Shown: piece after piece, positions 1 to 39,900 of the stretch
Layout: each line of letters begins with the position of its first letter
How positions within the stretch are numbered: position 1 is the stretch's first letter
Source: Lingula anatina
Taxonomy: Eukaryota; Animalia; Brachiopoda
DNA: 64,000 nt
Direction of reading: 5' to 3'
Assembly (NCBI GenBank): GCA_051362555.1
Contig: CM120648.1
Location: 19,092,587 to 19,156,586 of the forward strand
The notes under the pieces: generated by a model
Seen by the model: only the letters and a program-made list of their open reading frames with translations
Told to the model about the DNA's origin: nothing
The model's database searches: none
Position numbers and translations under genes: made by a program

Positions 1-16
1 AAGTCAAAAACCCAAA

Positions 17-1630
17 ATGAAAACTTCTAAAGTGACTTCCTACATTCATAATGAAGGAAGAGCGGCTGCTGAAAGCTATAGGGCAGAATTTGAAAGAATT
101 CTCAAAGTGGGTGAGGAAATTAATCAACAAGAAAAAATTTCACGCAGTAAAAACATTCAAAAAGCTGCAACTTATTCTCCACCAACATATTTAAAATTAA
201 AAGCTCGTTCAAAATCAACAACTGAGCAGCAATTTATCAAACCAAAAACAAAATTACGTTCTCACTCAGCTTTGGACCCCAGAACTTTCACTTCGCAGCC
301 AGCCACTTTAGACCCTGAATACGATCTTTTTGCTCTGCCTATTGAGAGGCTGCGTGTCGATAACAAAGATCATACAACTTCTTCCGCGCATATAAAGCCT
401 CCAGGCCGTGTCATAAATTCCGAGACTGTTACTACTTTACCGACTGGTAGGGAAAGTAGTCGGCGACCAGCTCCGTCTGTCCATCGGGTTGTTTCGAATT
501 ATGATCTGCCACAGATTCATGTTCCTACGCCCGGACGGCGGCAACTTAACGTTGAGCATAATGTTGCTGATACAGTCGAACGTAAACATGATTACCGGCC
601 GAGTTCAATAGAGAAACATCATACGCGCCATAGAATTTCGTCTCCCGTTTTCCGCGACGAACCACTTCTTCCCGAAAGCGATGAAAGTGAAAATGAATAT
701 TTTACAGTACCAAAACCAGTACGTCCTAAACCTAAAAAGGACAGAGGGGACCCCAGTGATTTACCCAAAAAATTGTCTTTTGACGGAAATTGTGAAAACT
801 GGGAGTCTTTTAAAAACAGATTTGACAGTTATCGCCAAGTGAAAGAGTGGTCGGAAAATGAGTGTCTAGATTACCTTTTATGGAGTCTGGAAGGCGAGGC
901 TTTGGCTTTGTATAACACCAATCTCAGAGCAAATAAAAACATGACGTATTCAGCCTTAATGAGTGAAATGGATTCAGTATTCGGAATTAAAAAACATCCC
1001 GATTCAGCTCGTTTGGCATTTCATACAGCAGTTCAATCTCCCAACGAAACCTTGAATAAATGGCTGTGCCGTGTTTTGTTATTGGCCAAAGATGCTTATC
1101 CTGATGAATCAGAATCCTTTAGAACAAAAGAAACAATATCTAAATTTTGTCAGGGCTGCATTGATCAGGATGCCGGGCGTTACACTCGTTTAAAACATCC
1201 AGCAAGCATCAGCGAGGCAATGACCTACATGGTGGATTATCAGCAAGTCTACAAATCATCACATATTCAAAAACCAACACGAAAAAATCGTGATGAATTA
1301 CAAATTAGTTCTCTAAATCTAACAGCTGATGAAAATCAGCAATTTCCAACTGAAAATGTAGAACAACTTGTTGAATCCATCGTGGAAAAACGCGTTAGCC
1401 AGTCACCTAAATTGAATACAATTCAGTTTAATTCAATGGCAGAGTTGGAATCTATGGTTGAACGCTTGGTCCGGAAATTCACACCTAAAACAACACCTGT
1501 GTGTTTTTTCTGTAAAGGAAAGGGCCATTTTAAACGAAATTGCCTAAAATATAAAAAATTCTTACAAAGAAAAAATGCTGAAAAACAACAAGCACGGGCT
1601 GATATAACGAATCCAACTCATTTAAACTAG
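17..1630 (+). CDS. gag: Gypsy Gag (capsid-like domain + CCHC zinc knuckle)
   Basis: 537-aa ORF; LSFDGNCENWESFKNRF capsid-like start; CFFCKGKGHFKRNC = CX2CX4HX4C. The frame may extend upstream of the window. Confidence 0.9.
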   Translation: MKTSKVTSYIHNEGRAAAESYRAEFERILKVGEEINQQEKISRSKNIQKAATYSPPTYLKLKARSKSTTEQQFIKPKTKLRSHSALDPRTFTSQPATLDPEYDLFALPIERLRVDNKDHTTSSAHIKPPGRVINSETVTTLPTGRESSRRPAPSVHRVVSNYDLPQIHVPTPGRRQLNVEHNVADTVERKHDYRPSSIEKHHTRHRISSPVFRDEPLLPESDESENEYFTVPKPVRPKPKKDRGDPSDLPKKLSFDGNCENWESFKNRFDSYRQVKEWSENECLDYLLWSLEGEALALYNTNLRANKNMTYSALMSEMDSVFGIKKHPDSARLAFHTAVQSPNETLNKWLCRVLLLAKDAYPDESESFRTKETISKFCQGCIDQDAGRYTRLKHPASISEAMTYMVDYQQVYKSSHIQKPTRKNRDELQISSLNLTADENQQFPTENVEQLVESIVEKRVSQSPKLNTIQFNSMAELESMVERLVRKFTPKTTPVCFFCKGKGHFKRNCLKYKKFLQRKNAEKQQARADITNPTHLN

Positions 1631-1682
1631 AAGGGTCCAAGGGAAATGACCGTAACCTTGGAAACCCGACTGAAACCGGTCA
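1621..1682 (+). promoter_or_regulatory. Programmed -1 ribosomal frameshift signal (slippery heptamer + H-type pseudoknot)
   Basis: T TTA AAC (1621-1627) in the gag frame just before TAG; pol is in the -1 frame and open from 1621. After a 5-nt spacer, stem TCCAAGG(1636-42)/CCTTGGA(1656-62); loop TGACCG(1647-52) pairs with CGGTCA(1677-82). Confidence 0.85.
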
Positions 1683-3654
1683 CAAAACGGGTGAAACCAT
1701 CGTGACTTCATTGTCTCAAACACGAACCGTTGACAATACTATCCCCGTAATGGAAACATTGCATCGTCCTCATCATTCCGAGTTAGAATGTGGTCAAAAT
1801 CCTGTAATTGATGAACTTGGGGTTTTTCGATCTTCATTCGTTCCTTTGGTAGTGGCGGGTGTACATGTAATGGCCAAAGTTGACACCGGTGCGCAAGTTT
1901 CTGTCATGGCTGAAAAAATATTCGAGCAAATAAAAAATAAACCATCGCTCAAGAAATATTACAGTCTTACTCTTGCGGCAGGGGATATACAAATCGAAAC
2001 TCGTGTTTGTGAGCCAATTTCCATCGAACTAGATCGTTTCAAAATCAAGGAATCTGTTCTGGTAGCGCCGATACATGACGATTTTTTGTTAGGCCACGAT
2101 CTAATTGCCCAGTTTAATGCGAGCGTGCATTGTAATTTGGGTTACATCCAAATAGAAGGGCGCGACATACCTATGCAGCAAACGGAGTCGCGTGCACAAG
2201 ACATTAAAATAGCTCGGGTTAGCGTTTCACGAAATGTAGTAGTACCCCCAAATTCAGCACTAAGGATAACGTGCGAGATCGACGAAAAGTTAGAAAAATA
2301 CGTCGTCGAGGGTAAAGAAGAAGAGGGACTACTAATACCGAGAACTGTCTTGTCCGAAAAATCAAAACCAGTCGTGTGCCTCTTAAATCCATCAGATCAA
2401 TTTAAAAAATTAAAAAGGGGTCATGTGGTCGCTACGGCTTGCGAAGTTTCGGAAATTTTAGAAAACCCTGTTTCGCACTTCGGTTTACATCGAGTGGGAG
2501 GGGGGTCTACTAAAATTGACCAATCCAGCGCTCGTGTTGTCGGTACCACTGATGAGACAATGACTACCGATCTACTGGTGGGATTACCTGAAATTACTCG
2601 TGTAAAATCAGCCGTCCCTAGAACCGGTAGGGATTCTACAAACACACTTGTGGGATTCAATTTACCAGTGGAGCATTCAATTTACACTCCTAGAACTAGT
2701 AAAATCCCTAGAACAGGTGTGCACCCAAATATGACAAAGCTTGTGGGATTAAATTCTACTGGGGTTTGTGGTGTTAATTCCCCTAATTTTGAGAATATCC
2801 CTAAAACAAGTGCCCGAATTAAAAATGACATAAAAAGTAAACAACTTCTGAAGGTGGGTGGAAGTACTCAGGGCCCTTTAAGTGCCCCATCTGCCGGAAA
2901 GGGGTTCGTTGAAGAAAAAATTAACACCGAAATTTTCAAGTCACCTGTAAAGGGGTCACCTCAGGTGCGGAATTTTAAACAAATCGCTGGTGACGTTCAC
3001 GCCGGACAAGATTCTTCTGGACGCGTCGCTAGCAAATCATCAGAAATTCCTGACCATGTTAATGTGGTTTATGAAACATCAAAGAGGAATTTAAACAAAA
3101 TTCAGAGTAAAAAATTAAAGAATGTTCTATCTGAATTTCAGGATGTTTTTGCTAGAGACGAGTATGACCTTGGTCGGTTTAGTGCCATCGAGCATGGTAT
3201 CGATACCGGGAATGCCAAACCTCTTAAAACGCGTATGCGGCGAACTCCCGCGTGTTTTATTCAAGAAGAGGAGGCATTATTAACAAAAATGTTAAAAGCC
3301 GGGGTCATCCAAGAGTCTACGTCAGAGTGGGCATCAGCACCAGTTTTAATTAGAAAACGTGACGGTTCCGTCCGATGGTGCATCGATTATCGCGCCTTGA
3401 ACAATGTCACGGTCAAAGACACGTATCCATTACCCTTAATGGAAGATTGCAAAGATACTCTGTCGGGAAACATCTGGTTTTCGAAGTTAGATGCCAATTC
3501 TGCGTATTGGCAAGTCAAAATTAAACCCGAAGATAGGCATAAAACAGCTTTTATCACGAAATACGGATTATTCGAACATGTCCGTATGGGTTTCGGCTTG
3601 ACCAATGCTCCTGCGACTTTCTCCCGAGTAGTCAATTTACTTATGAAGGGTTGA
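1621..3654 (+). CDS. pol: Gypsy Pol, 5' part: aspartic protease, spacer, N-terminal half of RT
   Basis: AKVDTGAQVS protease motif and LLGHD; RT motifs SEWASAPVLIRKRDGSVRWCIDYRALN, KLDANSAYWQ, MGFGLTNAPATF. ORF track 1702..3654, extended to the frameshift site. Confidence 0.92.
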   Translation, partial: FKLEGSKGNDRNLGNPTETGHKTGETIVTSLSQTRTVDNTIPVMETLHRPHHSELECGQNPVIDELGVFRSSFVPLVVAGVHVMAKVDTGAQVSVMAEKIFEQIKNKPSLKKYYSLTLAAGDIQIETRVCEPISIELDRFKIKESVLVAPIHDDFLLGHDLIAQFNASVHCNLGYIQIEGRDIPMQQTESRAQDIKIARVSVSRNVVVPPNSALRITCEIDEKLEKYVVEGKEEEGLLIPRTVLSEKSKPVVCLLNPSDQFKKLKRGHVVATACEVSEILENPVSHFGLHRVGGGSTKIDQSSARVVGTTDETMTTDLLVGLPEITRVKSAVPRTGRDSTNTLVGFNLPVEHSIYTPRTSKIPRTGVHPNMTKLVGLNSTGVCGVNSPNFENIPKTSARIKNDIKSKQLLKVGGSTQGPLSAPSAGKGFVEEKINTEIFKSPVKGSPQVRNFKQIAGDVHAGQDSSGRVASKSSEIPDHVNVVYETSKRNLNKIQSKKLKNVLSEFQDVFARDEYDLGRFSAIEHGIDTGNAKPLKTRMRRTPACFIQEEEALLTKMLKAGVIQESTSEWASAPVLIRKRDGSVRWCIDYRALNNVTVKDTYPLPLMEDCKDTLSGNIWFSKLDANSAYWQVKIKPEDRHKTAFITKYGLFEHVRMGFGLTNAPATFSRVVNLLMKG

Positions 3655-6600
3655 CATGGAAAACAGTTTTGGCATTTTTGGACGATATTTTGGTAATGGG
3701 GAAGTCCTTTGAAAATCATTTAGAAAATTTGAAAGAGGCTTTGGGAAGATTTCGCCAGTTCGGTATCAAATTAAAGCCAAAAAAGTGCGTTTTGTTTCAA
3801 AAGGAGGTTGAATTCCTGGGGCGGATTGTTTCTAATAACACCATGAAAATGAGCCCTAAGGATATTGAAGTTGTAACTTCTTGGCCACAACCCACTTGTT
3901 CTAAGGACGTTGAAAGGTTCTTAGGATTGGCAAATTATCACCGGACATTTATAAAAAATTTTGCGGAAATATCCCATCCTCTGAGCAAAATTAAAGGTAA
4001 ACATGCCTTTGAATGGGGACCAGATCAAGCTCAATCTTTCGAAGCGCTCAAAACGGCATTGACTACACCACCAGTCTTATCATTACCAAACGCAAACGAT
4101 CCGTTTATTTTGGACACCGACGCTTCAAATCACTCGATTGGTGCAGAGTTAATACAAGTGCAAAACGGCGAGGAGAAAGTAATTGCGTACGGCAGCTACG
4201 CGTTAACTCCCGAACAAAAGAATTATTGCACCACGCGAAAAGAGCTTTTGGCTATCGTGAGATTTACCAGACAATTCAGGTATTATCTTTTGGGCCGAAT
4301 ATTTACCGTTCGCACCGATCATTCAAGTCTGACGTGGTTACTGAGGTTTAAGGAGCCTCAAGGTCAACTCGCGAGGTGGATAGAAGAGCTTTCGCAATTC
4401 AATATGATCGTACAACATCGTGCCGGAGCTAAGCATAGCAATGCCGATTCGTTGTCTAGAATACCCGACAATTTGGCACCGTGTAACGAGTATATTGCGG
4501 GAATAAAGCCGGAAAATTTACCTTGCGGAGGATGTAGTTATTGCGTCAGAGCCCATGAAAACTGGGGGAGTTTTTTCGGTGACGTCGATGAAGCGGTCAA
4601 TTTAACAGAAAAGAAAAAATTGTCATCCAAATTTACTGGTAAATCTACAAAAAGTCAACGCGATCTGACATCCTCATTAAATACAGTCAATCTGGGACGA
4701 GAAACGGGTCCGGAACATCTTTTTTATTGTCTCCTAGATAAAATTGTAGCCCTCTCTACCGATGTAGCTCTGCAACCCGAGGAATCTCATGTAGAAATAA
4801 ATGCGTGTGGTCCGGAGGCGAGGTCAAATCCAAACCCGGATATTCCTCAGTGTTGGGGTTTTTCTATGGAAAAATTAAAAACTGAACAAGCAAAAGACCC
4901 TGAGCTTAACATTTTACGAGAGTGGTTGTACAAAGGGAATACCCCAGATCAGGGTGCACTCTTCCGATCAAGCCCAATCTCCAAAACTTACTGGCTGAAT
5001 AAAGAATTATTCAAATTACATCATGGAGTCATTTTCAAAACTGAAGAGGAAAGCAAAGATCTAAAATTAGTCATCCCAGAATCATTAAAAAATTCTGTTT
5101 TCAAATTACATCATGATATCCCTTCAGCTGGTCACCAAGGAGTGGCTAGAACAAAAACAAAAATCAAAGAAAAATTCTACTGGCCCCATATGAGCAAAGA
5201 AATAGCCAATTATGTCCTGAGTTGTGACATCTGTAATAAAAATAAGAAAAAAGGGTGTTACGGAAGAGTCCCCCTGACTGAATATGTTGCAGGTGCTCCG
5301 ATGGAACGGGTTCATATTGATTTCTTGGGACCGCTACCTAAAACAGCAAAAGGTAATGAGCATTGTTTGGTCATGGTTGATCAATTCACAAAGTGGGTAG
5401 AGTGCGTACCGTTGCCTTCTCAAACGGCTGAAGTTACCGCGAAAGCAGCAATTGACTGTTTCTTTTCTAGGTTCGGTTATCCCTATCAACTTTTTTCTGA
5501 TCAGGGACGGAATTTTGAAAGTCAATTGTTCGGGGATTTGTGTAGGGCTTTACATATACACAAATCACGCACTACTCCGTACCGACCGTCTGCAAATGGA
5601 CAGGTTGAAAGGTTCAATCGTACCCTGATGGATGCCGTACGGTGTTTTTTGGGTAAAAATCAGGGTGAATGGGATAAATATGTCCAGCAAATTGCAGGCG
5701 CGTTGCGTGCTTCTGTAAACAGAAGTACGGGGTATACCCCTAATATGCTCATGCTTGGGAGGGAGGTCAGTACTCCAGCCCAAATTATGTTCCCAAATCT
5801 GAAATCAAAAGAAACTGACTATGGTGAATACATTTCAAAGTTAGTACAAAAAATGAAATTAGCTCATATTACAGCAAGAGCCAATTTAAAAACAACTTCA
5901 AAACGCATGAAACGTGACTATGACCTTAAAATCCTGCTTAGACCTTATGCTGAAAAGGATTTGGTTTATGTTTTGGATACAGCAACAACTAAAGGCAAAT
6001 CACGAAAATTGTGTTCACCATGGAAAGGACCCGCCATCATTGTAAAGAAATTATCTGGCTATCTGTATCGAGTGAAGCTAAAAAATGCAATCTTTGTAAT
6101 TAACCATGACAGGCTCATGCCCTGTAGGGACAGAAATGTACCCTCATGGATTACAGAATATTTAGCTTCTGATGAACAATTTCAGCACTCGAGTAACAGT
6201 GAGGAAGAAGATTTGACACCATACTGTATTTGCAGGGAGCCTTATCAGGGCAGATTCATGATTCAATGTGATTACTGTCATGAATGGTATCATGGATCCT
6301 GCGTCAATGTCACTTCTACCGAAGCGATAAACATTGATAAATACAAGTGTGTAAAATGTCAAATCAAATTATTATTTTTCATTGTTATTACAGATATGGC
6401 CAATACTATCACGGAAGTAGCACCTGTTGTGAAGGAGACTTCACTCAGATTACAGCATTGTTCACCTATAGATGTCCCTGGAACCCAGTTTGTCCAGGAT
6501 TTGGCCCAGGCTCTGCCTGGGGAAGATCACAGCAGCTACTTCAAAACACTGGTGGCTGGGATGGCTACCATTTATAAAAAGGAGCTTCGTGCTCCCGGTA

Positions 6601-8687
6601 GGTATGCCATGTCTCTGGCATGGTTGCAGCAAGTGGCCTACCAACTACAATCTAGTGGGCTTGCGTCTAAAAACTGGATTGAGAAGAATGTTTGGCGCCT
6701 TCCCAAAAATTTCACCCCTCCTGCACGAGTTTTGAAATCTGCTCCCTCCGTGGAGTACGATGGACAAAAAACTCGTGATTTCAGGCTTGGGAAGGACCCA
6801 AACATTACACTCATAACCCAGGTGGTCGATGGGAGTGGCACGGTCCAGCCTATGGAGGTGGAATCGCAATTGGATGAGGCTGAACTTGGTGTGGGGTCAA
6901 GTAACATCGACCCCAACTCCAGTCTGGACTCCATTGAGGAGGACAGACTTCTTGGAGTCCCAAGGGAGGCCAAATGCAGCGTGAAACCTCCAGCTACTCC
7001 GGAAACTCCTATGCCAGGCGCATCACTGCTGCAAAATACCGCCATCCCTTTTAACTTTTCTATCTCCTCTTCTTCAGGTTCACACCTCCCTGAAGCTGCT
7101 GCTCCAACAGGGATCCAAGTTCCTGTTCCTGGGCCTGTACCATCTGAGCCCATGGGGGGCAGTAAGCGTAAGGGGAAGAAGAGAGCTCCTTGGTGGAGGC
7201 GTGGCAAGAAACCTGGCAAGGGGTTGGTTGCTGCAAAGTCTGGGGTGGATGGGCATGTTGAGTCAGCGGAGCTGTCTCATCCTACAACCAGGGAACCGAA
7301 AAGGTCTAGCCAGACACCATCCGGAGTGGTTGGACCTGACCCCAAAAGGGCCAGGAAAGATCACTCCGAGATGCAATGTGTGGTCCCTGGGTGTGGGGTG
7401 AAATTCAATGAGCAGATGCTCAGGCAGCATTCGCTGGGGCTGCATGTCCCGTCTATCTTTGATGAGCGCGCCAATCCTGAGCCCAACATCTTGGGTGTAA
7501 TGGTTAAAGCACTGGAGATGCTTACTTTCTTCATTTTTGGTTTTAAAAAAGAACTGGACACTTTATACCAGTTCATTTCGGCTCTTCCAGATAAATTAAA
7601 TTTAGCCCATGGCACTTTTTCTTCAATCCAAATTACTGCCATGGAAAATTTCTGTAAATTTCTCAATAAACCGGTCCCAGTGTGTTTCACCTTATACCCA
7701 GCTAACTCTGTCGGGGTCCTGGTGGATTGGAGAGTCCTGACACAGCTGTCTGCTTCTATAACGGAGCAGCAGAGGTCGTTGTGGATTCAAGGGTTCACCA
7801 GGCCAGAAACTTGTCTGGAGGCGGGGGAACAAAGTAAGTCAGGGAGGCAAGCTTTCGATAGTCACTATCATCTAGATAGAACCCTGGCTGCCTTTGGTCT
7901 TCCATACTCTGGCAAGTTAGAGGGTCTTAAGGGTTTGCTTCCTGTTTGCTCTGGGAAAGAGGTAGAGTTGGTGGGAACTGTAGCTATTTACTGCGATCCC
8001 AAGACATATCCTACTAAGGGGTATCTTTCCACTCTGTCTGGGATCGAGTATGTAGCTATTGGTTTTCACCCGAGGCTAGCCGGCAAGCTTTCTCAGGGCA
8101 ATCTGGACCAGGCAATTAAGGCTTTCTCAGAGTTGGTTAAGATGCCGCTAGTAACAGCTTTTGGCGAGGTAGGTTTCGACCACACTGAAGCCATGTCTAA
8201 ATGGCAGGATCAGGTTGAGTTGCTCCACAGACTTCTGCCTTTTCTAGAGGCCAGGCATGTCCTGGTTGTGCACTGTAGGGGAGTGAGGGGAGACTCTGGA
8301 GACTGTGAGTTCGCCATAAGATCTCTTTTGTTTCATCTGAAACTGTGTGGCGTTCCGCAGTCCCAGAGGATCCATTTTCACTGCTTTACAGGCACTAAGG
8401 CCCTTCTCGAAATTTGGGGAAGGCAGCAACCAAATACCTTTTTCGGTTTCACCCGGGTTGCTGCCACCTTTAACAAACACCAGTTGGCAGCACTTAGGGC
8501 GGTGCCCGACTCCAAACTTCTTTTGGAGTCGGATGCCCCCTATTTCGCTCGCAAAAAGGGGGGCCATTCAACACCCTTTACTCTCTATGAAACGGCAGAG
8601 ATATTGGCGGGGCACAGAGGGGTGGATGTCTCTCATATTTTAAAAATCACTACACAAAATGGTACTTCCTTGTATAAAAGGGAGTAA
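3651..8687 (+). CDS. pol: Gypsy Pol, 3' part (RT palm, RNase H, integrase, PHD finger), continuing in frame into a C2H2 + TatD protein
   Basis: AFLDD; RNase H ILDTDAS..TDHSSL..NADSLSR; integrase HHCC (HHDIPSAGH..CDIC) and D,D,E (HIDFLGP, SDQG, VERFN); PHD at 6222-6359; TatD motifs from 7851. Joined to the 5' part by an apparent 1-nt deletion near 3650 (expected KG-L-TWK). Confidence 0.92.
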   Translation: MTWKTVLAFLDDILVMGKSFENHLENLKEALGRFRQFGIKLKPKKCVLFQKEVEFLGRIVSNNTMKMSPKDIEVVTSWPQPTCSKDVERFLGLANYHRTFIKNFAEISHPLSKIKGKHAFEWGPDQAQSFEALKTALTTPPVLSLPNANDPFILDTDASNHSIGAELIQVQNGEEKVIAYGSYALTPEQKNYCTTRKELLAIVRFTRQFRYYLLGRIFTVRTDHSSLTWLLRFKEPQGQLARWIEELSQFNMIVQHRAGAKHSNADSLSRIPDNLAPCNEYIAGIKPENLPCGGCSYCVRAHENWGSFFGDVDEAVNLTEKKKLSSKFTGKSTKSQRDLTSSLNTVNLGRETGPEHLFYCLLDKIVALSTDVALQPEESHVEINACGPEARSNPNPDIPQCWGFSMEKLKTEQAKDPELNILREWLYKGNTPDQGALFRSSPISKTYWLNKELFKLHHGVIFKTEEESKDLKLVIPESLKNSVFKLHHDIPSAGHQGVARTKTKIKEKFYWPHMSKEIANYVLSCDICNKNKKKGCYGRVPLTEYVAGAPMERVHIDFLGPLPKTAKGNEHCLVMVDQFTKWVECVPLPSQTAEVTAKAAIDCFFSRFGYPYQLFSDQGRNFESQLFGDLCRALHIHKSRTTPYRPSANGQVERFNRTLMDAVRCFLGKNQGEWDKYVQQIAGALRASVNRSTGYTPNMLMLGREVSTPAQIMFPNLKSKETDYGEYISKLVQKMKLAHITARANLKTTSKRMKRDYDLKILLRPYAEKDLVYVLDTATTKGKSRKLCSPWKGPAIIVKKLSGYLYRVKLKNAIFVINHDRLMPCRDRNVPSWITEYLASDEQFQHSSNSEEEDLTPYCICREPYQGRFMIQCDYCHEWYHGSCVNVTSTEAINIDKYKCVKCQIKLLFFIVITDMANTITEVAPVVKETSLRLQHCSPIDVPGTQFVQDLAQALPGEDHSSYFKTLVAGMATIYKKELRAPGRYAMSLAWLQQVAYQLQSSGLASKNWIEKNVWRLPKNFTPPARVLKSAPSVEYDGQKTRDFRLGKDPNITLITQVVDGSGTVQPMEVESQLDEAELGVGSSNIDPNSSLDSIEEDRLLGVPREAKCSVKPPATPETPMPGASLLQNTAIPFNFSISSSSGSHLPEAAAPTGIQVPVPGPVPSEPMGGSKRKGKKRAPWWRRGKKPGKGLVAAKSGVDGHVESAELSHPTTREPKRSSQTPSGVVGPDPKRARKDHSEMQCVVPGCGVKFNEQMLRQHSLGLHVPSIFDERANPEPNILGVMVKALEMLTFFIFGFKKELDTLYQFISALPDKLNLAHGTFSSIQITAMENFCKFLNKPVPVCFTLYPANSVGVLVDWRVLTQLSASITEQQRSLWIQGFTRPETCLEAGEQSKSGRQAFDSHYHLDRTLAAFGLPYSGKLEGLKGLLPVCSGKEVELVGTVAIYCDPKTYPTKGYLSTLSGIEYVAIGFHPRLAGKLSQGNLDQAIKAFSELVKMPLVTAFGEVGFDHTEAMSKWQDQVELLHRLLPFLEARHVLVVHCRGVRGDSGDCEFAIRSLLFHLKLCGVPQSQRIHFHCFTGTKALLEIWGRQQPNTFFGFTRVAATFNKHQLAALRAVPDSKLLLESDAPYFARKKGGHSTPFTLYETAEILAGHRGVDVSHILKITTQNGTSLYKRE
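6396..8687 (+). CDS. Putative ORF3 of the Gypsy element: basic/NLS-like region, C2H2-like finger, TatD-family nuclease domain (763 aa)
   Basis: ATG 2 nt after a strong acceptor TTATTTTTCATTGTTATTACAG (AG at 6392-6393). TatD motifs FDSHYHLD, GFHP, FGEVGFD, VVHCR, HFHCFTG, LLLESDAPY; CVVPGC-x11-H-x4-H at 7377-7445. Confidence 0.8.
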   Translation: MANTITEVAPVVKETSLRLQHCSPIDVPGTQFVQDLAQALPGEDHSSYFKTLVAGMATIYKKELRAPGRYAMSLAWLQQVAYQLQSSGLASKNWIEKNVWRLPKNFTPPARVLKSAPSVEYDGQKTRDFRLGKDPNITLITQVVDGSGTVQPMEVESQLDEAELGVGSSNIDPNSSLDSIEEDRLLGVPREAKCSVKPPATPETPMPGASLLQNTAIPFNFSISSSSGSHLPEAAAPTGIQVPVPGPVPSEPMGGSKRKGKKRAPWWRRGKKPGKGLVAAKSGVDGHVESAELSHPTTREPKRSSQTPSGVVGPDPKRARKDHSEMQCVVPGCGVKFNEQMLRQHSLGLHVPSIFDERANPEPNILGVMVKALEMLTFFIFGFKKELDTLYQFISALPDKLNLAHGTFSSIQITAMENFCKFLNKPVPVCFTLYPANSVGVLVDWRVLTQLSASITEQQRSLWIQGFTRPETCLEAGEQSKSGRQAFDSHYHLDRTLAAFGLPYSGKLEGLKGLLPVCSGKEVELVGTVAIYCDPKTYPTKGYLSTLSGIEYVAIGFHPRLAGKLSQGNLDQAIKAFSELVKMPLVTAFGEVGFDHTEAMSKWQDQVELLHRLLPFLEARHVLVVHCRGVRGDSGDCEFAIRSLLFHLKLCGVPQSQRIHFHCFTGTKALLEIWGRQQPNTFFGFTRVAATFNKHQLAALRAVPDSKLLLESDAPYFARKKGGHSTPFTLYETAEILAGHRGVDVSHILKITTQNGTSLYKRE

Positions 8688-9453: not shown

Positions 9454-9467
9454 AAAAGTGGGGGGAA
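9454..9467 (+). promoter_or_regulatory. Polypurine tract of the Gypsy element
   Basis: AAAAGTGGGGGGAA immediately before TGTTGTGAT. Confidence 0.85.
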
Positions 9468-9757
9468 TGTTGTGATCGAAGTTTTTTCCTTCCTCCACCT
9501 GGTCTGCTCTTCATGTGCCAAGATAGGCCACCTCAGGTGAGTGAGCTAGGCCAGGTGGGGACAGCACGCCCCCTGCAGGAGATCGTCACTATTGTGACAT
9601 CACAACTGTCACAGATCATTGTCTAATATTCTGCACTCCGTACCGGACGTGTCTAGATTGACGATCCATCTACAATTCTATCAAAGAGCATAACAATAGA
9701 CAGCGATCACTCACCAATTCAGTAAGTAGACACAGTGAATACTTTAATAACATCACA
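9468..9757 (+). repeat. 3' LTR of the Gypsy element (~285 bp; ends either 9468-9752 TGTTG..TAACA or 9471-9757 TGTGAT..ATCACA)
   Basis: Follows the PPT, has TG...CA ends, and host coding sequence resumes right after. The partner LTR is outside the window, so the ends are not confirmed. Confidence 0.72.
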
Positions 9758-10332
9758 GGGTGACAGATGTGTCCAAGTGTACTCCACCAGAGGTCAGCAG
9801 GTGACAACCATGGGTCAGGGTCTACTGGAGTTACCACTGGGTATTACACTGAACAGACAAGGTCATGTGATGGTTTGTGACAGTGTAAAGAAGTCCATCT
9901 TCACATTCCATGCAGACAGTGGACAGCTCCTGAACACTATTCCACTCAGTATGTGTAGAGACCCAGCGTACATCACAGTGAACAGTGTGAATGATAACAT
10001 TGTGATATCAGACATGGGGGGACACTGTGTACATGTGCTGTCACCTACTGGTGATCATCTGTACAAGTATGACGGCAGCAGAGAAGGCAGTAAACTGAGT
10101 TTACCACAAGGAGTGTGCACAGACAGCTATGGTCACATCTTCATTGCTGACTGGGATAACGACAGGATAGTGGCACTGAGTCCACAGGGACAGTTTATCA
10201 GATACATTGTCACTGAGGATGATGGGTTGCGGCGTCCCAGTGCAGTAGTCATCAACCCTGCTACTGGTCAGCTGGTGGTGGGAGAGTGGTGGGGCAATGT
10301 TAAGACATTCCAGTACATTGAACTGAAACAAG
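9753..10332 (+). CDS. NHL-repeat beta-propeller exon (TRIM-NHL-like), cut at its 5' side by the Gypsy LTR
   Basis: Repeated NHL blades: PLGITLNRQGHVMVCD, PAYITVNSVNDNIVISD, PQGVCTDSYGHIFIADWDNDRI, PSAVVINPATGQLVVGE. Ends at donor AAG|GTGAGT (10332/10333) or at TAG 10340. Confidence 0.85.
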
Positions 10333-11175
10333 GTGAGTAGTTCATGTATTAACTGTGGATAAATATGTTTATTATGTAAAAATTTTGAAAGTTAATTAGT
10401 CTTACAATGTTTTTATCCATTAATATGTTTGCCTTTATTTCAATAAAAAACTTTTTAAGCATATTTATATAAATTCAGTAAGCACACAGCTGTGCTTTAG
10501 TAAAAATGTATGTAGAGTGGAGACATTTTCTATAGATAATACTTTACTGTTACTGACCAATTTCCATGAACCCATTAGTGATTAGGATTTTGAATAATGA
10601 TGAAGAACTCTTTTTAATGGACTTTATAGTGTGCTTTATTTGTATTTTTATTAAGTCACATGAAAAACATCTTACATTGTTTAATCCCTGAACTTCTTGT
10701 CCATTTGTCAGTGAAGAACAACTCAAATCTCACAACAGAACAGTCCAATTCTTCATATTCTTCATCTTGTAGCTCTTCATGAAAGCTTAGATATACCTAA
10801 ATTCTCAAATGTACTTTGTCAAGTTTCTTGATGTCTTACCACTTCTAGATTCAAAGACATTTCATCACCAGTTTGTTGTTAACACACACAAATAAATTAA
10901 ATGTTGAAGTACTTTGGATGATACCTTATTTTCCTGACTTTGTAGATTGTTGTTTGCAAATAAAACTAGCAGACGACCATTTTTCATGAAATGGAACTAC
11001 TTTTTACAGGAAGTAGTGTATTCATACACAACAGTGACCTTGGGTTTGGAATACAAAAAAATAGTACATGCATTCATACTGTCACAGCATGCAAATTATA
11101 ATGAAATATACAAAACTAAACATTTTTATGTAACACAAGTTAAATGCATTTTTATTTATTAAAATAATTTATTTA

Positions 11176-12394: not shown

Positions 12395-12425
<31 letters not shown>

Positions 12426-15400
12426 GCACTTTTACCAATAACACGATAAGTGGAAAACCATTTTGCCTTTTGATTTGAAACTTGCAGAACTGATGAATAT
12501 TCATAATACGCAGGTCAAGTTCGAAAATCAGCATGATCGGGTCACTCTTAGGGAATTTATGCTGTTTTTTCACTTTTTTCAACATATATGCAGCACCGAT
12601 AACACAATAAGTGGAAAACCATTTTACCCTTTGGCTTGAAACTTACAGAACTGATGAATATTCATAATATGCAGGTCAAGTTCGAAAATCGGCATGATTG
12701 GGCCATTTTTAGGGAATTTATGCTGTTTTTTCACTTTTTCAGCATATATGCAGCACCGATAACACAGTAAGTGGAAAACCATTTTACCTTTTGGCTTGAA
12801 ACTTACAGAACTGATGAAAATTCTTAATACGCAGGTCAAGTTCGAAAATCAGCATGATTGGGCCATTTTTAGGGAATTTATGCTGTTTTTTCACTTTTTT
12901 CAGCATATATGCAGCACCGATAACACGATAAGTGGAAAACCATTTTACCTTTTGGCTTGAAACTTACAGAACTGATGAATATTCATAATACGCAGGTCAA
13001 GATCGAAAAACAGCATGATTGGGTCATTTTTAGGGAATTTATGCTGTTTTTTCACTTTTTTCAGCATATATGCAGCACCGATAACACGATAAGTGGAAAA
13101 CCATTTTACCTTTTGGCTTGAAACTTACAGAACTGATGAATATTAATAATACGCAGGTCAAGTTTGAAAATCAGCTTTATCGGGTCATTTTTATGGAAGT
13201 TATGCTATTTTTTCATTTTTTTAGCATATATGCAACATTGATACACGATAAGTGAAAAACTGTTTTACCTTTTGGCTTGAAACTTACAGAACTGATGAAT
13301 ATTCATATTACATATGCAAAGTTTGAAAATCAGCGTGATCGGACCAATTTTATGGAAGTTATGCTGTTTTTTTCACTTTTTTCAGCATGTATGCAATACC
13401 GCTAACGCATTTCAAGAAAAATCAATTGGCCAATTGTCTTGAAATTTACAGGGGAGATCAGTCTTACTGAAATACAGATGGAGTTTGAAAATGGTTCAGT
13501 TTTGGTGAAGTTATGCCTTTTTTTGTATATAAGTGTTTTTTTTTTTTTCCTTTGATTTAATTCTTAGGCATGTTAAGAATCTCCTCTGTGAACTAATTAA
13601 ATATGTAAAGGTGTTCTTTTGACATTTTCTGCATCTTAACAATATTGTTAGTTGATTATATAAAAAAGATGGTTAACCTGTTATTGTGTATTATATAACA
13701 AAGTGTCAAAAATGGAAATAATAATAAACTCATATCTTTACAGTTTGTCAGATTCAATCATTCACCATGTTCAGAATCTCAGAATGGAGCAAAATGGCAA
13801 TTTAAAATTGTTCTATTGATATTTTTCCTATGACAGCAATTTTCTTAGTTGTTCATTTAAAAATGACAGTAAATTGATTATTTTGTTATATGAAAAAAAG
13901 ATGTTGAAAATGGAAAGAAAATCAATTCAATACAGTTATCTTTTGTTTACATTTTAGCATTTTGAAAGTGTGACTCTGAACTTCCATGGCCTTGAGGACA
14001 TTTCCATGTCACATTTTCTGTAAATCCATGATACTTTTATTTTATTATTAAAAATTAATGGTCATTATATTATATTGCATAAAAGTTGAAGAAAACCCTA
14101 ATTTTGGAAATGGCTGCCGGAATGACCACTAAGGAAAAACCATGTTACTCATGATACTCAAACTTACTGAAAAGTTTCGTAAATCAGTGTGATTGTTTTC
14201 CGTTTTGGAAGCAATGTAGCTCTATAGAGTGCTATATGGGGCTACTGTGTATGGATGGTGGTAATTGCCCCTTGGGATAGTCACAAGCTAAATTCAGAGC
14301 TATAAAATCATTTGCCTAATTGATTTCCAAGTGCCCATTAAATAAGATTACATAAAACACACGCTGAGACTTCCCAGTAAAGTCCCATAGGTTAAGCTCT
14401 CTTAACTGTGTCACATAATTAGGAATCTATGATAATTATGCAGGTAAATGTTGTTTAATATTGCAAATAAGTTAAAGCAATAATAACTCTTCCTTTGAGA
14501 TTCAAAATTCCGCATGAAATACATTGTAAACAACGCATGGAAATATATTCTATTGTATTTTACCACTAAAACGGCCGTTATTGTAGTAAAACTAAAATCT
14601 GTGCTTGTCAATAGGGCTTTCGAAGCTTGCATCAAGGCATTCGTTGCTAATGACGTAATGGTGTCACGCGGATTCTCGCGTTCATTCGAGACCAAAATAA
14701 CATATGGCGCCAAACGCATTAATGCGGACGCAGACGTAAGTTGCGAGTTTTTGTACAGTGCGTCGGATAACAAAAAGCCCAGAACGGCACACATTGTGGA
14801 TATTATGTATTTTTAACAAAAAGACGAATATATCTCATGAATCTTATATAGTGTTGTTGTTGTCTGCTTTTCCCGCGGTTTTAAGTAGGTCAACAGTGAC
14901 TATGCGATGTCAGAGAGAGCTCCGTCAGTTAAAATCTCTTAAGAGATTTTAACAAAAAACCGTACGTTTAGGAAAAAAACCCTGGATTAACTTTGAATGC
15001 AGGAATGGGGTCGCTGACCATTGGTAAGTACGGGAAAATTGCCGTTTACTCCAGGAAAATCCAATTTTTGGCCAAAATGAAGAGTTATTATGACTTTAAC
15101 AAAACAAAACAAAAAAATAGATGAATAACAGTGTCTTATTATCCTCAAACACATTGGGGTTATTCATATCATGTTATTACAGCAAGATTAAAAGTTTGAA
15201 TAGTAGCTTTAATGGGATATTTTTGTGTTTTCTTTTTAATTTTTTTTTTCAAACACTGGCATTTTCAGCTCCCATCCACCTGAAGCTCTTCACATTTTCT
15301 GTATTTCCACATAAGCAGTTGCATTGGTTTTTATGTCTTTAAACATTATGTAATATTATTTTATGCACTGTCATCATTATTTAGATATTGGGATTTTCAT

Positions 15401-15740
15401 TATGTGAATTTGGTCCTGAAACTGTAATCTTATTGCAGGGGTGGATTGAGGCCATCTTCTGGGTCTTTCAGATTTTAAAGTTCACATTGATGGGCATCTC
15501 TTTTTTCTGTTGGAAGACCATCAAAAATGTAGGATGGATCAACAAAGATAATTTGGAATACTGTCAGAAAATATCTCTGGATCAGCTCCTGTTATTGACG
15601 ATGTCACCTGTTGTGCATGATTAAATTTCAGCGTTGATTGACAGTGCTATTGTAGGCATCAAAATTGACAAAATGAACCATTTTCTGCATTTTTATTTTG
15701 TGTTTTTGTCTGTACATTTGACAGCTTTGCTGCCTTGTTT
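12334..15740 (+). mobile_element. Helentron/DINE-1-like non-autonomous element, family A (160-bp tandem core)
   Basis: T run, then hairpin ATGTACAGACAC-AGAT-GTGTCTGTACAT and a (GTC/GCC)n microsatellite; ~6 x 160-161 bp repeats (12440-13400); 3' sub-TIR GTCTGTACAT (15708-17) and hairpin GACAGC-TTT-GCTGCC before a T run. Confidence 0.7.
14476..15095. mobile_element. Kolobok-like non-autonomous DNA transposon
   Basis: TTAA on both flanks (14472-75, 15096-99); AG...CT termini; TIR AGCAATAATAACTCTTC vs GAAGAGTTATTATGACT; the paralogous repeat at ~17655 lacks the insert. Confidence 0.8.
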
Positions 15741-18519
15741 ACTTTTTTCAGCATATATGCACCACCGATAACACGATAAGTGGAAAACCATTTTACCTTT
15801 TCCCTTGAAACTTACAAAACTGATGAATATTCATAATACGCAGGTCAAGTTCGAAAATCAGCATGATCGGGTCATTTTTAGGGAATTTATGCTGTTTTTT
15901 CACTTTTTTCAGCATATATGCAACCCCGATAACACCATAAGTGGAAAACCATTCTACCTTTTGGCTTGAAACTTACAAAACTAATGAATATTCATAATGC
16001 ACAGGTCAAGTTCAAAAATCAGCATGATTGGGTCATTTTTAGGGAATTTATGCGTTTTTTTTCACTTTTTTCAGCATATATGCAGCACCGATAACACCAT
16101 AAGTGGAAAACCATTCTACCTTTTGGCTTGAAACTTACAAAACTGATGAATATTCATAATACGCAAGTCAAGTTCAAAAATCAGCATGATTCGATTATTG
16201 TTAGGGAATTTATGCTGTTTTTTCACTTCTTTCAGCATATATGCAGCACTGATAACACAATAAGTGGAAAACTGTTTTTTCATTTGGCTTGAAACTTACA
16301 GAACTAATGAATATTCATAATACGCAGGTCAAGTTTGAAAATCAGCAAGATCGGGCAATTTTTATGGAAGTTATCCTGTTTTTTTTTTTTTTTTTTTTTT
16401 TCAATTTTTTCAGCACTTTTATAACACCAATAACATGATAAGTGTAAAAATGTTTTTCCTTTTGGAGTGAAATTTACAGAACTGGTGAATATTTATAATA
16501 CGCAGGTCAAGTTTGAAAATTGGCATGATTGGACTAATTTTACAAAAGTAATGCTGTTTTTTTCCCTTTATTCAGCATACATGCAACACTGATAATGCAT
16601 TTTAAGGAAAACCAATCAGCCTTTTGTCTTACAACTCACAGGAGTGATCAATCTGACCAGTATACAGATCAAGTTTGTAAATAAGCTTGATCAGTTAAGT
16701 TTTGATGAAGTTATTAGCCTTTTTGTATATAAGTGGTTTTTCTTCAGATTTAATTCTTAAGCATGTTAACAGTCTCATTACGGAACTAATTGGATATGTA
16801 AAAGTGTTGTTTTAACATTTTCTGCTTCTTAACAATATTGTTAGTTGATTATATAAAAATGACGGTAAACCTATTATCGTGCATTGTGTAATAAAGTATC
16901 AAAAATGGAAAGGAACTCATCATTGCAGTTCGTCAGATTCAATCATTCACTATGTTCAGAATCTCCAAATGGAGCTAATTGGACATTATAAATTGTTCTA
17001 TTGATATTTTTCCTATGTCAACAATTTTCCTAGTTGATCATTTAAAAATGACAGTTAATTGATTATGGTTTTATGTAAAAAAGGTGTTGAAAATGGAAAG
17101 AAAATCATTTCAGTACAGTTATCTCTTGTTAACATTTTGGCATTTTGAAAGTGTGACCCTAACTTCCATGTCCTTGGAGACCTTTCCATATCACATTTTC
17201 TGAATATCCATGATACTTTTATTTTTTTATAAAAAAATTGATGGTCATTATGTTGTTAAGTATTATGTTATATTGCATGAAAGTTAAAGAAAACCCTATT
17301 TTGGACACTGCTGCCAGGATAGCGATTAAAGGAAAACCATGTTACTTATGATAATCAACCTTACTAAAAAGACTGAAGTGCAGCTTGTGTTTGAAAACCA
17401 TCGTAATTGTTTTCTGTTTTGAAAGCAATGCAGTACAGTGCTATTTGGTGCAATAAATGTATATGGATAGTAGGCAGTTAATTCAGGGTTATAAAATAAT
17501 TTGCTTAATTAATTTTTAAGTGGGCATTAAATGAGATTACAATGAAATCTCAATGTGTGTTTATGTAAAGTCCCATCGGTTTAGCTTTCTTAACTGTGTC
17601 ACATAATTAGGAATCGATGATTATTATGCAGGTAAATGTTATTTAATATGGAAAATAAGTTTACAAAAAAAATTTTGTGTAACGCTTACATTAATGCTAA
17701 AGATGAATAACAGTGCCTTATTATTCTCAAACTCAATAGGGTTATTCATATCATTTTAGTAATTGTACAGCTAGATTAAAAGTTTGAAAAGCAGCTTTAT
17801 TGGTATTTTTTGTTATGTTTTATTTTACATTTTCTTTTAATTTTTTATGCTGTTTTTTCACTTTTTTCAACATATATGCAACATTAATAACACAATATAA
17901 GAAAAACAGCTTAGCCAATTGTCATTATATTCACAGGAGTGGTCAATCTTACAAAAATGCAGGTTGAGTTCGAAAATCAGCGTTATCGGGCCATTATTTT
18001 AGAAGTTGTACTTTTTTTTCAAATTTCCTCAGATTCAATTCTTAGGCATGTTAACAGTCTCATTATTGAACTAATAAGATACGTAAAAGTGTTTGTTTGA
18101 TATTTCCTGCATCTTTACAACATTGTTAGTTGATTATGTAAAATTGATGGTAAACTTGTTATCATGTATTGTAATCAAGTGTCCAAAACGGAAATAAACT
18201 CATATCATTGCAGTTTGTCAGATTCAATCATCCACATCTGCCATGATGACCATGATGGGAAAACCGTGTTACTTAAGATTGTCAAACTTTCAAAAAAGAA
18301 ACACAGGACTAAAATGCAGCCCGAGTTGGAAAAGCAGTCTAATAGGCTTCTTTTTCTGGAAGTTATACATTTTAGTGAAATATTCATTATCTTTTTGGCA
18401 TATTCATTGTGGGACTCGGAGCTCCCATGGACATGAAGCCGGATGGTAATCAAATTTTCTACATGTTCATGCTATTTATAGTCAATAATCAAAAATTGGT
18501 GATAATTATTCTATAATTT

Positions 18520-20259
18520 ATTAGTACCACCAGCGTGTACGCTGGCGGTACTCATGGATTTAGTCTCGACCCGTCTCGTACGGCTCCGTAAGCTCCGCCG
18601 GCTCCGTTGGCTCCGCAGGGTGTCGTGGGATACAAGTCACCGTTACCGCTTCTCCTCCTAGACCGCAATGACCTGTGCCCCCATCTCTTGGATTTAGGTC
18701 ACATATAATCTCAACTTGAACCCCCTGGTATTTTTGTCTCAGTCAGTGCTTTGGCCTGGGCGTGACGCTCGTTGAAACGCACCCTTGTCAAAATTTTGGA
18801 AAATTCAATGCTAAATATCTCCCAAACCGAAGGAAATATGGGAAAAATTACTACAGAAGTCTGACCGAAAGTCATATGTGGAGATTCCAAATATGCCCTG
18901 AGATTTGATTTTTGACCTTTATTTCAAGGTCAAACGGGCCAAAATTTTCTAAACATGGGACTTTTCTGCAAAAAAATATTTGTTTGTACCAATTTTCAGA
19001 AACTACACAGACCTAAGCTCTCATATTATGGCAAGGGGTTACAATCAGGGACTCCTTTCATCTTTGAGAGTTTGGGGTCAATAGGTGCATTTTCATGGGA
19101 GAAGCGGCCATTAGATATGAGACTGAAAACTCTCTCAAATTCTGGAACCGTAAATGCCAGAGACCTTTTGAATTTTGCAATTTTTAGGACTTGTCAAGCA
19201 CAATACTGGAGGTGGTGTCAATGTTTTTGTTTTCGATACGGTTTAGGCGTTGCGCTATATAAAAAAGTACAACGCAATATTCAGTGGTAAAAATAAAATG
19301 TGAATTACTCCAAAATTAGCAGAGATATGCCCATAGTTCCTATTGAACTTGAACTGGAAGTCATATACTGACAATCTAACTGTGACCTTGAAATTGACCT
19401 GTGACCTACTTTTCATTATGAACTGCACTTTGCAATTTTTCTGATCTTCATATCTCCAAAACTGGCAAAGATACGACCATAGTTACTATTGAACTTGATT
19501 AGGAAGTCATATACTTGCAATCTAACTGTGACCCTGAAATTGACCTTTGACCTAATTTCCACCATGAACTAAACTTTGCAAATTTTCTATCCTTTATATC
19601 TCCAAAACTGGCAGAGATACATCCAAAGTTACTGTTGAACTTGAATAGGAAGTCATATAGTGGCAATCTAACTATGGCCTTGAAATTGAGCTTTGACCTA
19701 CTTTTTATGATGAACTGCACCTTGCATGTTTTCTGGCATTTATATCTCCAAAATTGGCAAAGAAATTCCCATGGTTACTATTGACCTTGAATAGGAAGTC
19801 ATATACTCTGACCTTGAAATTGACCTTTGACCTACTTTTTCACCTGGAACTTAACTTTGCATATTTTCTTGCCCCTTATATCTTCAAAACTAGCAGAGAT
19901 ATGCCCATAGTGTTGCCCAAGGTTTACTCTTTTGTCAGCATACTACAGATGCAACAATGATAACACATTTCAAGGAAAACCAATAGGTCTATTGTCTAGA
20001 AAATCACAGGAGTGATCAGTGTTAGGAAAATACAGGTCAATTCCAAAATCTGCATGATTGGACCATTATAGTTATGTTTTTTTTTTTTTTTCATTTTTTT
20101 TACATATTTTGAGAACTCTTGTTGATTGCATTTTATAGAGCTTGTTAAGCACAAGACTGGAGGTGGTGTCCCTTTTTTTTTTTGGTTTTCCATACGAATG
20201 CGCTTACTCCAGCTGGTGGTACAATATCCGGAGGCGGTATCGCCTCTCTGATCCTCTAG
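18520..20259 (+). mobile_element. Helentron/HINE family B copy (146-bp tandem core)
   Basis: 5' GTACCACCAGC with local inverted repeat and CGGCTCCG microsatellite; 3' GCTGGTGGTAC, hairpin GAGGCG-GTAT-CGCCTC and terminal CTAG followed by T. Confidence 0.8.
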
Positions 20260-36927: not shown

Positions 36928-39900
36928 CTATGTAAGTCTAAGTATTAAATTGTGCAAGCATACGTACATGGCCTTAAGGTGGCCCAAATTCTGTACTGAG
37001 TCCAGATATTTTTTAGCAAATTCGACGAAAGAAATAAGTAATAATTGTTTGTTTCTGCACCTAAAGCTGTAGATATAGTATTTGATTAACATATTTAGGA
37101 CATTATACGCATCTTTGTTATTTTCTTTTTTGTCAAGAATTCCAAATATAAATGTTATTTTCTCTAAAGTCATATTCAGCTTGTCTTTGATTACATTTAA
37201 AAAGGTCTCAGTTACAGAACAATCCCATAGTACATGAATAATTGTCTCCGTCTCTTTCTCGCACCTTTTGCAAAGGGGGGTGTTAACCAAACCAGTTTTT
37301 GCAAGATAACTATTTGTCGGTAATATATGTTGATTTATTTTATACTGGAACCATTTAAATTTAGGACTGATAGGAAGGTTGAAAGGCAGTTTATTTATTA
37401 GAGACCACTCTTTGTCATTAATATTAAACAATTTATTCCAATTAATTTTGCCCTTTGAAATAGAAGCATTCTTACTAAGTATTTTATAAAAATCTTGGCA
37501 GCCCTTCTTACTTTTAAAGAAGATACTTAAATATTCTGGGAGTTTAGGGAGCATTACTTCAGATTCGTTTATATCATGCAATTTCAAGTATCGCTTAATA
37601 ATGCTTACCACCCCTTGATATTCTAGGAAGTTGGTCTGAATACCATATCGCTTATTTATTTCTTCTTGTGAGAAAAAGGTAATTGTTTTAGTGTCTTTTA
37701 TAAAGTCCCTTATTGCAGATATACCTTTATTAAACCAGTGCTTATAGTATATTACCTTACTGTCTACTCTTAGGGCTTCATTATACCAGACAGGGGTGTC
37801 CAACACGGGCTTGTTTTTCCCCCTTAACTTGTCTTCCTTAACCCTGAGTTCTTTCCATGCAAGTAACACATCCCCCTAGAACCGGTTTTGGCAAACTTTT
37901 AGACATTTATTCAAATACTCATTACCACCCACTGACAAAAGTTCGAAATTTAGATATTTAGCTACGATAATTTGCCATTTTTTCCTTTTTGTATAAATAC
38001 GTCTAATCCATGTTAATTTTAGTGATGATATCAGTGAAGGCAAGTGTATCATTTTGATACCACCTTCATCGTAATTTTTAATAATTATATCCCGCTTAAC
38101 TTTATCGATCTTTGAGTTCCACAAAAAGTGGAAGAGGTCACTCTGAAGGTCATTGATAAACCTTTGACTAGGATTCGGTAAGGATATAAACAAATGATTT
38201 AATTGGGAAATTATTAAGGATTTTATAATTATACACTTGCCGATGGGGGTGATCATTCTTCTGTTCCATCCATTAAGAATAGACTTAATTTTTACTAATT
38301 TCTTATCAAAATTAAGTTTGGGGATTTGAAATAGATTAACATGAAATTCAATTCCTAAAAGATTAAACTGGTGCTTTCCCCAATCAAGATGCATATGTGG
38401 CAAAAATTTTAAATTACTGAACTTCATACGTCCTATCCATACTATTTTGGTTTTATCTTTGTTTATTTTCAACCCTGATATTTTTGAAAATTTATCTAAT
38501 TCAATCATAAGTTCGGATAAAGACTTTTCTGAGCCATCAAGCATCACTGTCGTATCGTCTGCGTATTGAGTTAATAAAATGGGGGCGTCATCAATAGTGA
38601 TACTTTTTATATTATTGTTATTCTTGAGTATTATTGAGAGTATTTCCGCACATAAAATAAACAAATAGGGGGCTATTGGGTCTCCCTGCCTGCAGCCTCT
38701 TTTAATGTAAAAGGACTCTGAGAGATTGCCTCCTTGATTTATTGCTGCTTGTGCACCCTTATTAAAAGTATTTATCCATTTGATAATACTTTCACCAAAG
38801 TTAAAAAAAACTAGTACCCTGTCAATAAATTTCCACGACACAGCGTCAAAGGCCTTTTCGAAATCTAATAGCACTAACATTCCAGGAATATCGTTATCTT
38901 CTGTGTATTGCATAATATCGTATACAGTACGGATACTTTCCCCAATGTATCTCCCGGATATAAAACCGCATTGATCGTCTGAAATAAGTTTGCCCAGGTA
39001 TTTCTTGACTCTGGATGCTATGACTCCGGAGGCTATTTTATAGGTAACGTTTAACAAAGAGATCGGTCTCCAGTTTTTCAAGTATTGCTTGGGCTTTTCA
39101 CCCTTAGGGAGACACGTAATTACACTTTGTCGCTGTGTAATTGAAAGTTGACCAGTCGAGTAACCCCAGTTTATGGATCTAACAACAAAATTGCCGAGCT
39201 GTGACCAGAATACCTTAAAGAATTCGACAGTGAACCCATCCGAGCCTGGACTCTTATTACTTTTCATTTTTTTTCAGAATTTGGGAGGCTTCATTTAGAC
39301 TAATTATACCCTCTAGTTCACTTGACTCAACATCTGTGAGCCTCAATGGATAATTGTGCGGTAAAATTGTGCTTAAGTCAACATCAATCACTTCATTAGA
39401 CTCTGCAAATATCTGTTCGTAGTAGCATTTAATTTCTTTTAAAATTAATGTTTGGGTAGTAATTTCTTCTCCGTTATCTTTAACTATCTTAGGTATTATT
39501 TTTGAAGTGAAATTTCGGTTTTCTAGGTTTAAAAAATATTCAGTGGGTTTTTCACCCTCTTCCAGCCACTTTGTCCTGGATCTTATCATACTACCCCTTA
39601 TTTTATTTTCCCTGATGTATTTTAGTTCCTCTTGTAATCTCTCTATATTATTTGCGTTTAGATTGTAATTTCTCTCCAAATTACTTATTTCTGTTATCAA
39701 TTTTTTTTCTCTGTCGCCAACTAATTTTTTCTTATAAGATGAAACGGAAATGGATTTGCCCCTGATCTCCATAAGTAGGGTCTCAAGAAAAAGTTGATCA
39801 TTTACGGTAAACTGTATGTCAGAGTCCGGAATTGAGCAGATATTATTTAGGTTATAGACAGGAAGTGCATACTGGATTTTTATATTATTAATAAGTTGTT

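Follow-up and report, generated by a model that had tools for sequence, protein, structure and literature searches.

The closest described counterparts of the locus studied here are the Juno and Vesta elements of bdelloid rotifers, which are likewise of the Gypsy type and carry a non-Env 3'-5' nuclease in the ORF3 slot, with spliced messages described and the function of the nuclease left unshown (PMC5408684); this rotifer class of nuclease-bearing ORF3s is also named in PMC6338049. Errantivirus-type elements have env in the same slot, and the gene described here shares with it a predicted env-style splice acceptor (PMC13524379). Among cellular proteins, TATDN2 likewise carries a class II (HxH) TatD domain at its C-terminus, behind a long N-terminal extension. 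Human TATDN2 degrades R-loop RNA and hairpin RNA, for which it needs two glutamates (PMC10711561), the fish tatdn2 shields germ cells from R-loops (PMC12709183), and TATDN1, TATDN3 and the E. coli TatD enzymes act on DNA (PMC10085689).

Here we describe a Gypsy element of the brachiopod Lingula anatina in which ORF3 encodes a TatD protein. It lies in the window, the whole stretch of 64,000 nucleotides that was analysed (contig CM120648.1, positions 19,092,587 to 19,156,586), to which all coordinates below refer. In Juno and Vesta the ORF3 product has a DEDDy fold, whereas here it combines a TatD TIM barrel with helical and zinc-finger domains, and the integrase bears a PHD finger; neither of the Juno/Vesta marks, DEDDy exonuclease and dUTPase, appeared in the Pfam scan of the window element. 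Unlike errantivirus env, ORF3 has no signal peptide, transmembrane anchor or fusion-glycoprotein fold. It differs from TATDN2 in being element-borne and multi-copy, and in its zinc-finger/helical and N-terminal domains, which were undetected in cellular-type loci. A nuclease in the ORF3 slot is already known from the rotifer DEDDy proteins, and what appears to be new is TatD as that nuclease. The original prediction had taken the arrangement for a candidate undescribed system, and no description of a TatD-bearing LTR element was found in the literature, a search that left Repbase, GyDB, Dfam, subscription journals and supplements outside, so that a database entry may exist. The available part of PMC5408684 does not mention TatD, that of PMC13524379 mentions neither TatD nor a nuclease, and there is no TatD in PMC8220671; in the available part of a squid genome paper, a TATDN2 gene is only labelled in a figure legend.

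Results

Architecture of the element

The first 9.75 kb of the window are the 3' part of a Gypsy element with gag, pol and a 763-codon ORF3. As judged from open reading frames and Pfam, gag is followed by pol in the order protease, RT, RNase H, then integrase, which is the Ty3/Gypsy layout. The features are as follows.

2..1630, + strand: gag (ORF and Pfam), truncated at its 5' end by the window border, with a CCHC knuckle and a capsid region resembling PNMA
1603..3654, + strand: first part of pol (ORF and Pfam), with aspartic protease at about 1849-2106 and N-terminal RT
3543..6371, + strand: second part of pol, with RT C-terminus, RNase H at about 4014-4400, integrase at 5073-5588 and a C-terminal module
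6225-6359, + strand: PHD finger at the C-terminal end of pol (Pfam)
6375..6393, + strand: predicted splice acceptor (pyrimidine tract and CAG, from sequence), 2 nt before the ORF3 ATG
6396..8687, + strand: ORF3, 763 aa, open frame from the ATG at 6396
9454..9467, + strand: polypurine tract, a motif common to relatives
9468..9746, + strand: 3' LTR of 279 bp, beginning with TG, ends set from reads and contigs
9537 and 9722, + strand: donor-like sites in the 3' LTR (from sequence)
9747..10340, + strand: host NHL-repeat coding exon (Pfam), outside the element and interrupted by its insertion

The 5' LTR of this copy lies outside the window, and the LTR ends were judged at the 3' side only, where same-species reads and contigs diverge before 9466-9468 and again behind 9744-9746, a divergence of the flanks that defines the 279-bp LTR. 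The element thus has the polypurine tract and TG-starting LTR expected of Ty3/Gypsy, with the LTR of this copy ending in TA, not CA. Since many reads continue at 9747 into other host sequence, we conclude that the element interrupts the NHL-repeat exon, which is itself a member of a multi-copy, expressed gene family. The position of TatD between integrase and polypurine tract, as originally predicted, was borne out by these landmarks, and its enclosure between LTRs rests on wrap-around contigs of relatives: in 8 of 10 relatives' contigs examined, all wrap-around assemblies, ORF3 is followed by a polypurine tract, an LTR of 247-386 bp and a PBS-like TGG, and a relative's contig (L125), also a wrap-around assembly, has this block at either end of gag-pol-ORF3. 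None of the relatives' wrap-around contigs showed a target-site duplication. A contig that seemed to carry two independent LTRs (L083) was rejected as a wrap-around repeat.

Several further observations concern the element and its surroundings. A long spacer between protease and RT (2200-3050) contains short imperfect repeats and had no Pfam match. RNA reads of two runs exit the LTR at 9722 into sequence of unplaced location, other than ORF3, and donor-like sites were also present in the LTRs of six of eight relatives. The window gag matches Pfam PNMA, and the Barthez lineage of Metaviridae is listed as the PNMA progenitor in the available part of PMC3670739, a lead that comes from the Pfam match. 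Elsewhere in the window, 161-bp and 146-bp tandem repeat arrays lie within 12395-19997, in a segment duplicated at about 3.2 kb. On the minus strand, endonuclease-RT frames and an ORF1-like frame, recognised by visible motifs and broken into pieces, lie at 36928-40729 and 44800-46074, which we take to be a LINE-type element, and a 1318-aa open pol at 60044-64000 presumably belongs to a BEL/Pao element.

The ORF3 protein

Frame, Pfam, alignment and structural model agree with the initial description of a 763-aa region with a Lys/Arg-rich patch, a C2H2-like finger and a complete TatD barrel. The AlphaFold model, built from 116 sequences, is confident for three units (residues about 25-110, 321-470 and 480-761) and of low confidence for the linker between the first two (112-319).

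6408..6689, + strand: N-terminal helical bundle, residues about 5-98, from the model, without a clear known fold
7161..7214, + strand: Lys/Arg-rich patch, residues 256-273, in the predicted disordered linker (residues 112-319)
7377..7793, + strand: zinc finger and conserved helical domain, residues 328-466 (alignment and model)
7854..8678, + strand: class II (HxH) TatD barrel (Pfam, model and alignment)

The Pfam TatD_DNase domain spans residues 487-761 (E 9.5e-28), and Foldseek matches the modelled barrel to TatD structures at an E of about 1e-11. None of the seven active-site residues is missing (H490, H492, E591, H626, H662, E711 and D713), so that the full set of metal ligands first read from the sequence held, and the protein shows both the TIM-barrel TatD fold and the HxH plus E, H, H and E-x-D ligands by which class II is defined (PMC10085689). 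ORF3 would therefore be a class II TatD with an intact active site, and a nuclease activity is predicted from these residues only.

The finger reads C328-x4-C333-x11-H345-x4-H350, and its two histidines are found in 97 and 101 of the 116 aligned rows, the rest being mostly gaps. The Lys/Arg patch may be a nuclear localisation signal. For the accessory domains, the best VIA match (Z 8.2) was helical and unspecific, with the middle domain barely covered; Foldseek gave no match at E 0.001 in the PDB or viral libraries, with Atlas matches at 0.75; silencing proteins gave no match. PPR matches were rejected as repeat artefacts. The claim that ORF3 is not an Env stands, as its N-terminus has no hydrophobic stretch that could act as a signal and a fusion-protein fold is absent. 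Residues 365-383, a 19-residue stretch with a Kyte-Doolittle value of 1.93, were considered as a transmembrane segment and rejected, because the corresponding helix of homologs is charged and the stretch is part of a globular domain in the model.

ORF3 as a separate gene

This copy has two defects: a break in its RT frame near 3650, and the lack of a stop between pol and the 763-aa region, which leaves a single 1714-aa frame. At both places the dominant contigs of three sequencing runs, and RNA reads from a fourth, deviate from the window, and in the sibling copies of those runs pol stops just after the PHD finger. The run that matched the window best (X1) may be its own source. Likewise, in 32 of 33 relatives the TatD frame is separate from the end of pol, L023 being the one other fused case. 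Since sibling copies and relatives stop after the PHD finger, the 1714-aa polyprotein is not the design of the family, and a pol-TatD fusion as such a design was rejected; among proteins of 942-3000 aa, the search for such fusions gave two matches, neither of them with RT. ORF3 is therefore a separate gene in the family, and the read-through and the RT frameshift are peculiar to this copy.

Most full-length homologs share the N-terminal start of ORF3. In a scan of the 250 nt after the PHD finger, a pyrimidine tract and YAG with an ATG (in any frame) within 30 nt was found at 27 of 34 loci, the window included, against 62 of 244 control windows. In run X5, which we guess to be DNA, one contig begins with the base that follows the CAG (6394), and contig depth, at 14 in pol, steps up to 55-94 in ORF3; contigs as such cannot show an RNA start, and the contig start and depth step fit a message that was spliced, or its copies in DNA. 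No splice junction was listed in five RNA runs sampled at 6-25% and at low depth. RNA cover of ORF3 was thin (0-3.6 in run X15; 4.6-11 in run X17, likely in the sense direction). Taken together with the predicted acceptor, ORF3 is likely expressed from a spliced message.

Linkage of TatD to Gypsy pol

A protein search restricted to 420-1150 aa returned 20 relatives, comprising 19 family members and one cellular TATDN2. Where hosts were named, among 20 proteins looked up, they were Lingula, Mercenaria, Pecten, Argopecten and Ostrea. At E up to 1e-30 a search gave 154 clusters (50% identity), most of them outside the linkage check, and among viral contigs none of 10 pattern matches was confirmed. 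DNA scans yielded 96 loci, one of them a duplicate, which competing profiles divided into 74 element-type and 21 cellular-type loci. Upstream sequence of 2.8 kb or more was available for 24 element-type loci, of which 23 had same-strand pol parts there, the exception being L028; none of the 21 cellular-type loci had them, only two of which extended that far. Because these loci had been found via TatD, the test was reversed, starting from the integrase in bin G001: at an integrase identity of 60-70% to the window there were 10 contigs, all of them with TatD, and of the next 16 integrase contigs (40-51% identity), several of which end soon after pol, one (L127) had it. The constant linkage to Gypsy pol, proposed as a test of the original prediction, was thus found from both directions, and the TatD ORF3 is a clade trait of a Gypsy lineage.

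All 23 integrases with a PHD finger fall on a single branch (SH-aLRT 100). The integrase of L127 falls outside it and has no PHD finger, and the contig encodes a 505-aa zinc-finger/helical/TatD ORF3 (L127:7518-9032) on the same TatD branch, which points to exchange between lineages or loss elsewhere. Three short contigs (L102, L145 and L107) carry an L127-like ORF3 and have no pol on them. Among related Gypsy elements without TatD, two (L135 and L139) encode C2H2 zinc-finger proteins after pol, and three (L138, L140 and L142) have long frames there without a Pfam match. A wrap-around contig (L007:933-6315) is a deletion derivative that has lost RT, RNase H and most of the integrase and keeps gag, protease, the PHD finger and an intact 755-codon ORF3.

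Selection, co-inheritance and origin of TatD

Of 29 pol-linked rows, 26 keep the seven active-site residues and three are truncated; of 65 other family rows, 54 keep them and 11 lack at least one ligand, five of them solely by truncation. Four pairs gave dN/dS values over the TatD domain of 0.13, 0.14, 0.18 and 0.20, and three pairs of near-identical copies gave 0.42-0.46, none of them near 1, with cellular pairs at 0.07-0.10; most of the distant pairs are saturated at synonymous sites. The ORF3 TatD is under purifying selection between element lineages, while the available part of the rotifer study describes near-neutral variation within a genome (PMC5408684). Distances of TatD and integrase are correlated across 22 elements (Mantel rho 0.68, p 0.0005); of the 11 supported splits in the TatD tree, 10 are also present in that of the integrase, as are 9 of 13 conversely, with one supported conflict. 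Such a correlation is expected from shared ancestry alone, and so the TatD gene has been inherited with pol. By this linkage and co-phylogeny we rejected a chance insertion beside a host TatD gene; linkage, purifying selection and co-inheritance with the integrase agree with the original view of a captured and maintained accessory nuclease within a Gypsy element.

The same results bear on whether ORF3 is a host-helping or passive cargo with no part in the element cycle. NCBI lists some copies as ordinary genes (in Lingula, Mercenaria, Pecten, Argopecten and Ostrea) and expression is low, as this reading would have it; however, the selection is seen between lineages of the element with saturated synonymous sites, the TatD tree follows the integrase, and many protein clusters, in the manner of transposon families, contain complete copies next to broken ones. 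We consider a cargo role very improbable.

In the TatD tree, inferred by a quick method from 64 rows with long branches, the element TatDs form one branch (SH-aLRT 97), which joins the TATDN2 lineage to the exclusion of bacterial TatDs (98). The phylogenetic placement first envisaged was thereby obtained for TATDN2 and the bacterial enzymes; for TATDN1 and TATDN3, which are absent from the tree, it was not. In two trees the element TatDs are sister to, and not nested in, the sampled cellular or animal TATDN2s, to which they are only about 30% identical. A C-D/N-P motif, H660 and W674 are common to element TatDs and TATDN2 and absent in three bacterial class II rows. TATDN2 had profile scores of 152-346 bits, bacterial class II had 113-118 and class I had 90; with another profile, TATDN3 scored 71, TATDN1 62 and YcfH 137 bits. 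Judged by profile score and shared residues, the closest cellular lineage is TATDN2. Since there is one supported branch outside the animal TATDN2s, with which scores and residues agree, the capture looks single and old. The GC content of TatD is 4-11 points above that of the integrase in all 18 elements compared.

A bacterial origin, suggested by labels of metagenome-assembled genomes, was rejected, as the contigs concerned are Gypsy elements and the bins' own TatDs group apart. Bin G001 (L081-L095) is listed as bacterial by GTDB and its element TatDs are labelled accordingly; it contains more than 100 retroelement integrase matches, and is thus heavily mixed with animal DNA.

Discussion

Our results suggest a function in which the ORF3 TatD, likely spliced and nuclear, clears the RNA of hybrids or structured RNA for the element. 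We put this forward tentatively, as our best explanation, and rate its chances at a little short of even. ORF3 would be the third gene of an old Gypsy clade, a TATDN2-related nuclease translated from a likely spliced message; it would act in the nucleus, as the basic patch suggests, and there remove the RNA from RNA-DNA hybrids or structured RNA born of element transcription and copying, a substrate proposed by analogy with human TATDN2. Copies of the element could in this way stay transcribed, and germ cells could stay viable while the element is active. Given the affinity with TATDN2, the most probable substrate moves in the direction of hybrid or hairpin RNA, and the two glutamates that TATDN2 requires correspond by motif to E591 and E711 of ORF3. 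Action in trans is favoured, as ORF3 is a separate ORF and would not be in particles as part of Gag-Pol. Against hybrid clearance stand the DNA-cutting activity of other TatDs, the dN/dS of the near-identical pairs and the ligand losses in 11 of 65 rows; moreover, pol already encodes an RNase H, so that removal of hybrids during copying would be redundant, and as a sister of TATDN2 with about 30% identity, the ORF3 TatD may have changed its substrate.

The DNA-directed activity of other TatDs also supports a second interpretation, in which ORF3 is a DNA-end or repair enzyme, a 3'-5' exonuclease or AP endonuclease, for cDNA ends or integration gaps, as the original prediction had proposed alongside possible action against competing elements or host sensing. 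TATDN3, YcfH and YjjV, all of class II, show AP-endonuclease activity, and TATDN3 a 3' exonuclease (PMC10085689); the solved structures nearest to ORF3 are such class II enzymes, and ORF3 travels with a PHD-bearing integrase. A repair enzyme of this kind nevertheless appears unlikely to us, given that RNA is preferred by the closest cellular lineage, that ORF3 stands outside Pol in nearly all relatives, and that 15 of the 16 related Gypsy contigs, many ending early, have no TatD.

The clearance of RNA for the benefit of the element shares its substrate, though not its purpose, with a third possibility, namely that ORF3 is a counter-silencing factor degrading or binding the host's small-RNA triggers, such as hairpin or double-stranded RNA, piRNA-target hybrids or nascent-transcript hybrids. 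This task would suit a protein that is separate, probably acts in trans and combines a zinc finger with a helical domain of the interaction type; hairpin RNA is cut by TATDN2 (PMC10711561), a silencing-related role has been suggested for the rotifer DEDDy ORF3s (PMC5408684), and the deletion derivative described above retains ORF3 after losing RT, RNase H and most of the integrase. The accessory domains, however, showed no match to silencing proteins, and we hold a counter-silencing role to be rather unlikely.

A broader and more speculative proposal, which we regard as doubtful, is that an old, uncatalogued PHD-integrase Gypsy lineage of marine invertebrates uses a spliced TATDN2-like RNase against silencing, erasing the structured RNAs or RNA-DNA hybrids that let the host recognise it. 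This module would also have reached a second lineage, that of L127, and would thus be a dedicated retroelement gene family that split early from cellular TATDN2.

As for annotation, genes of this kind are filed as host TatD in bivalves and Lingula, or as bacterial TatD in symbiont bins. As a non-Env third gene of an LTR retrotransposon, ORF3 is conserved in a large family and encodes an enzyme whose catalytic residues are known, so that it can be assayed directly.
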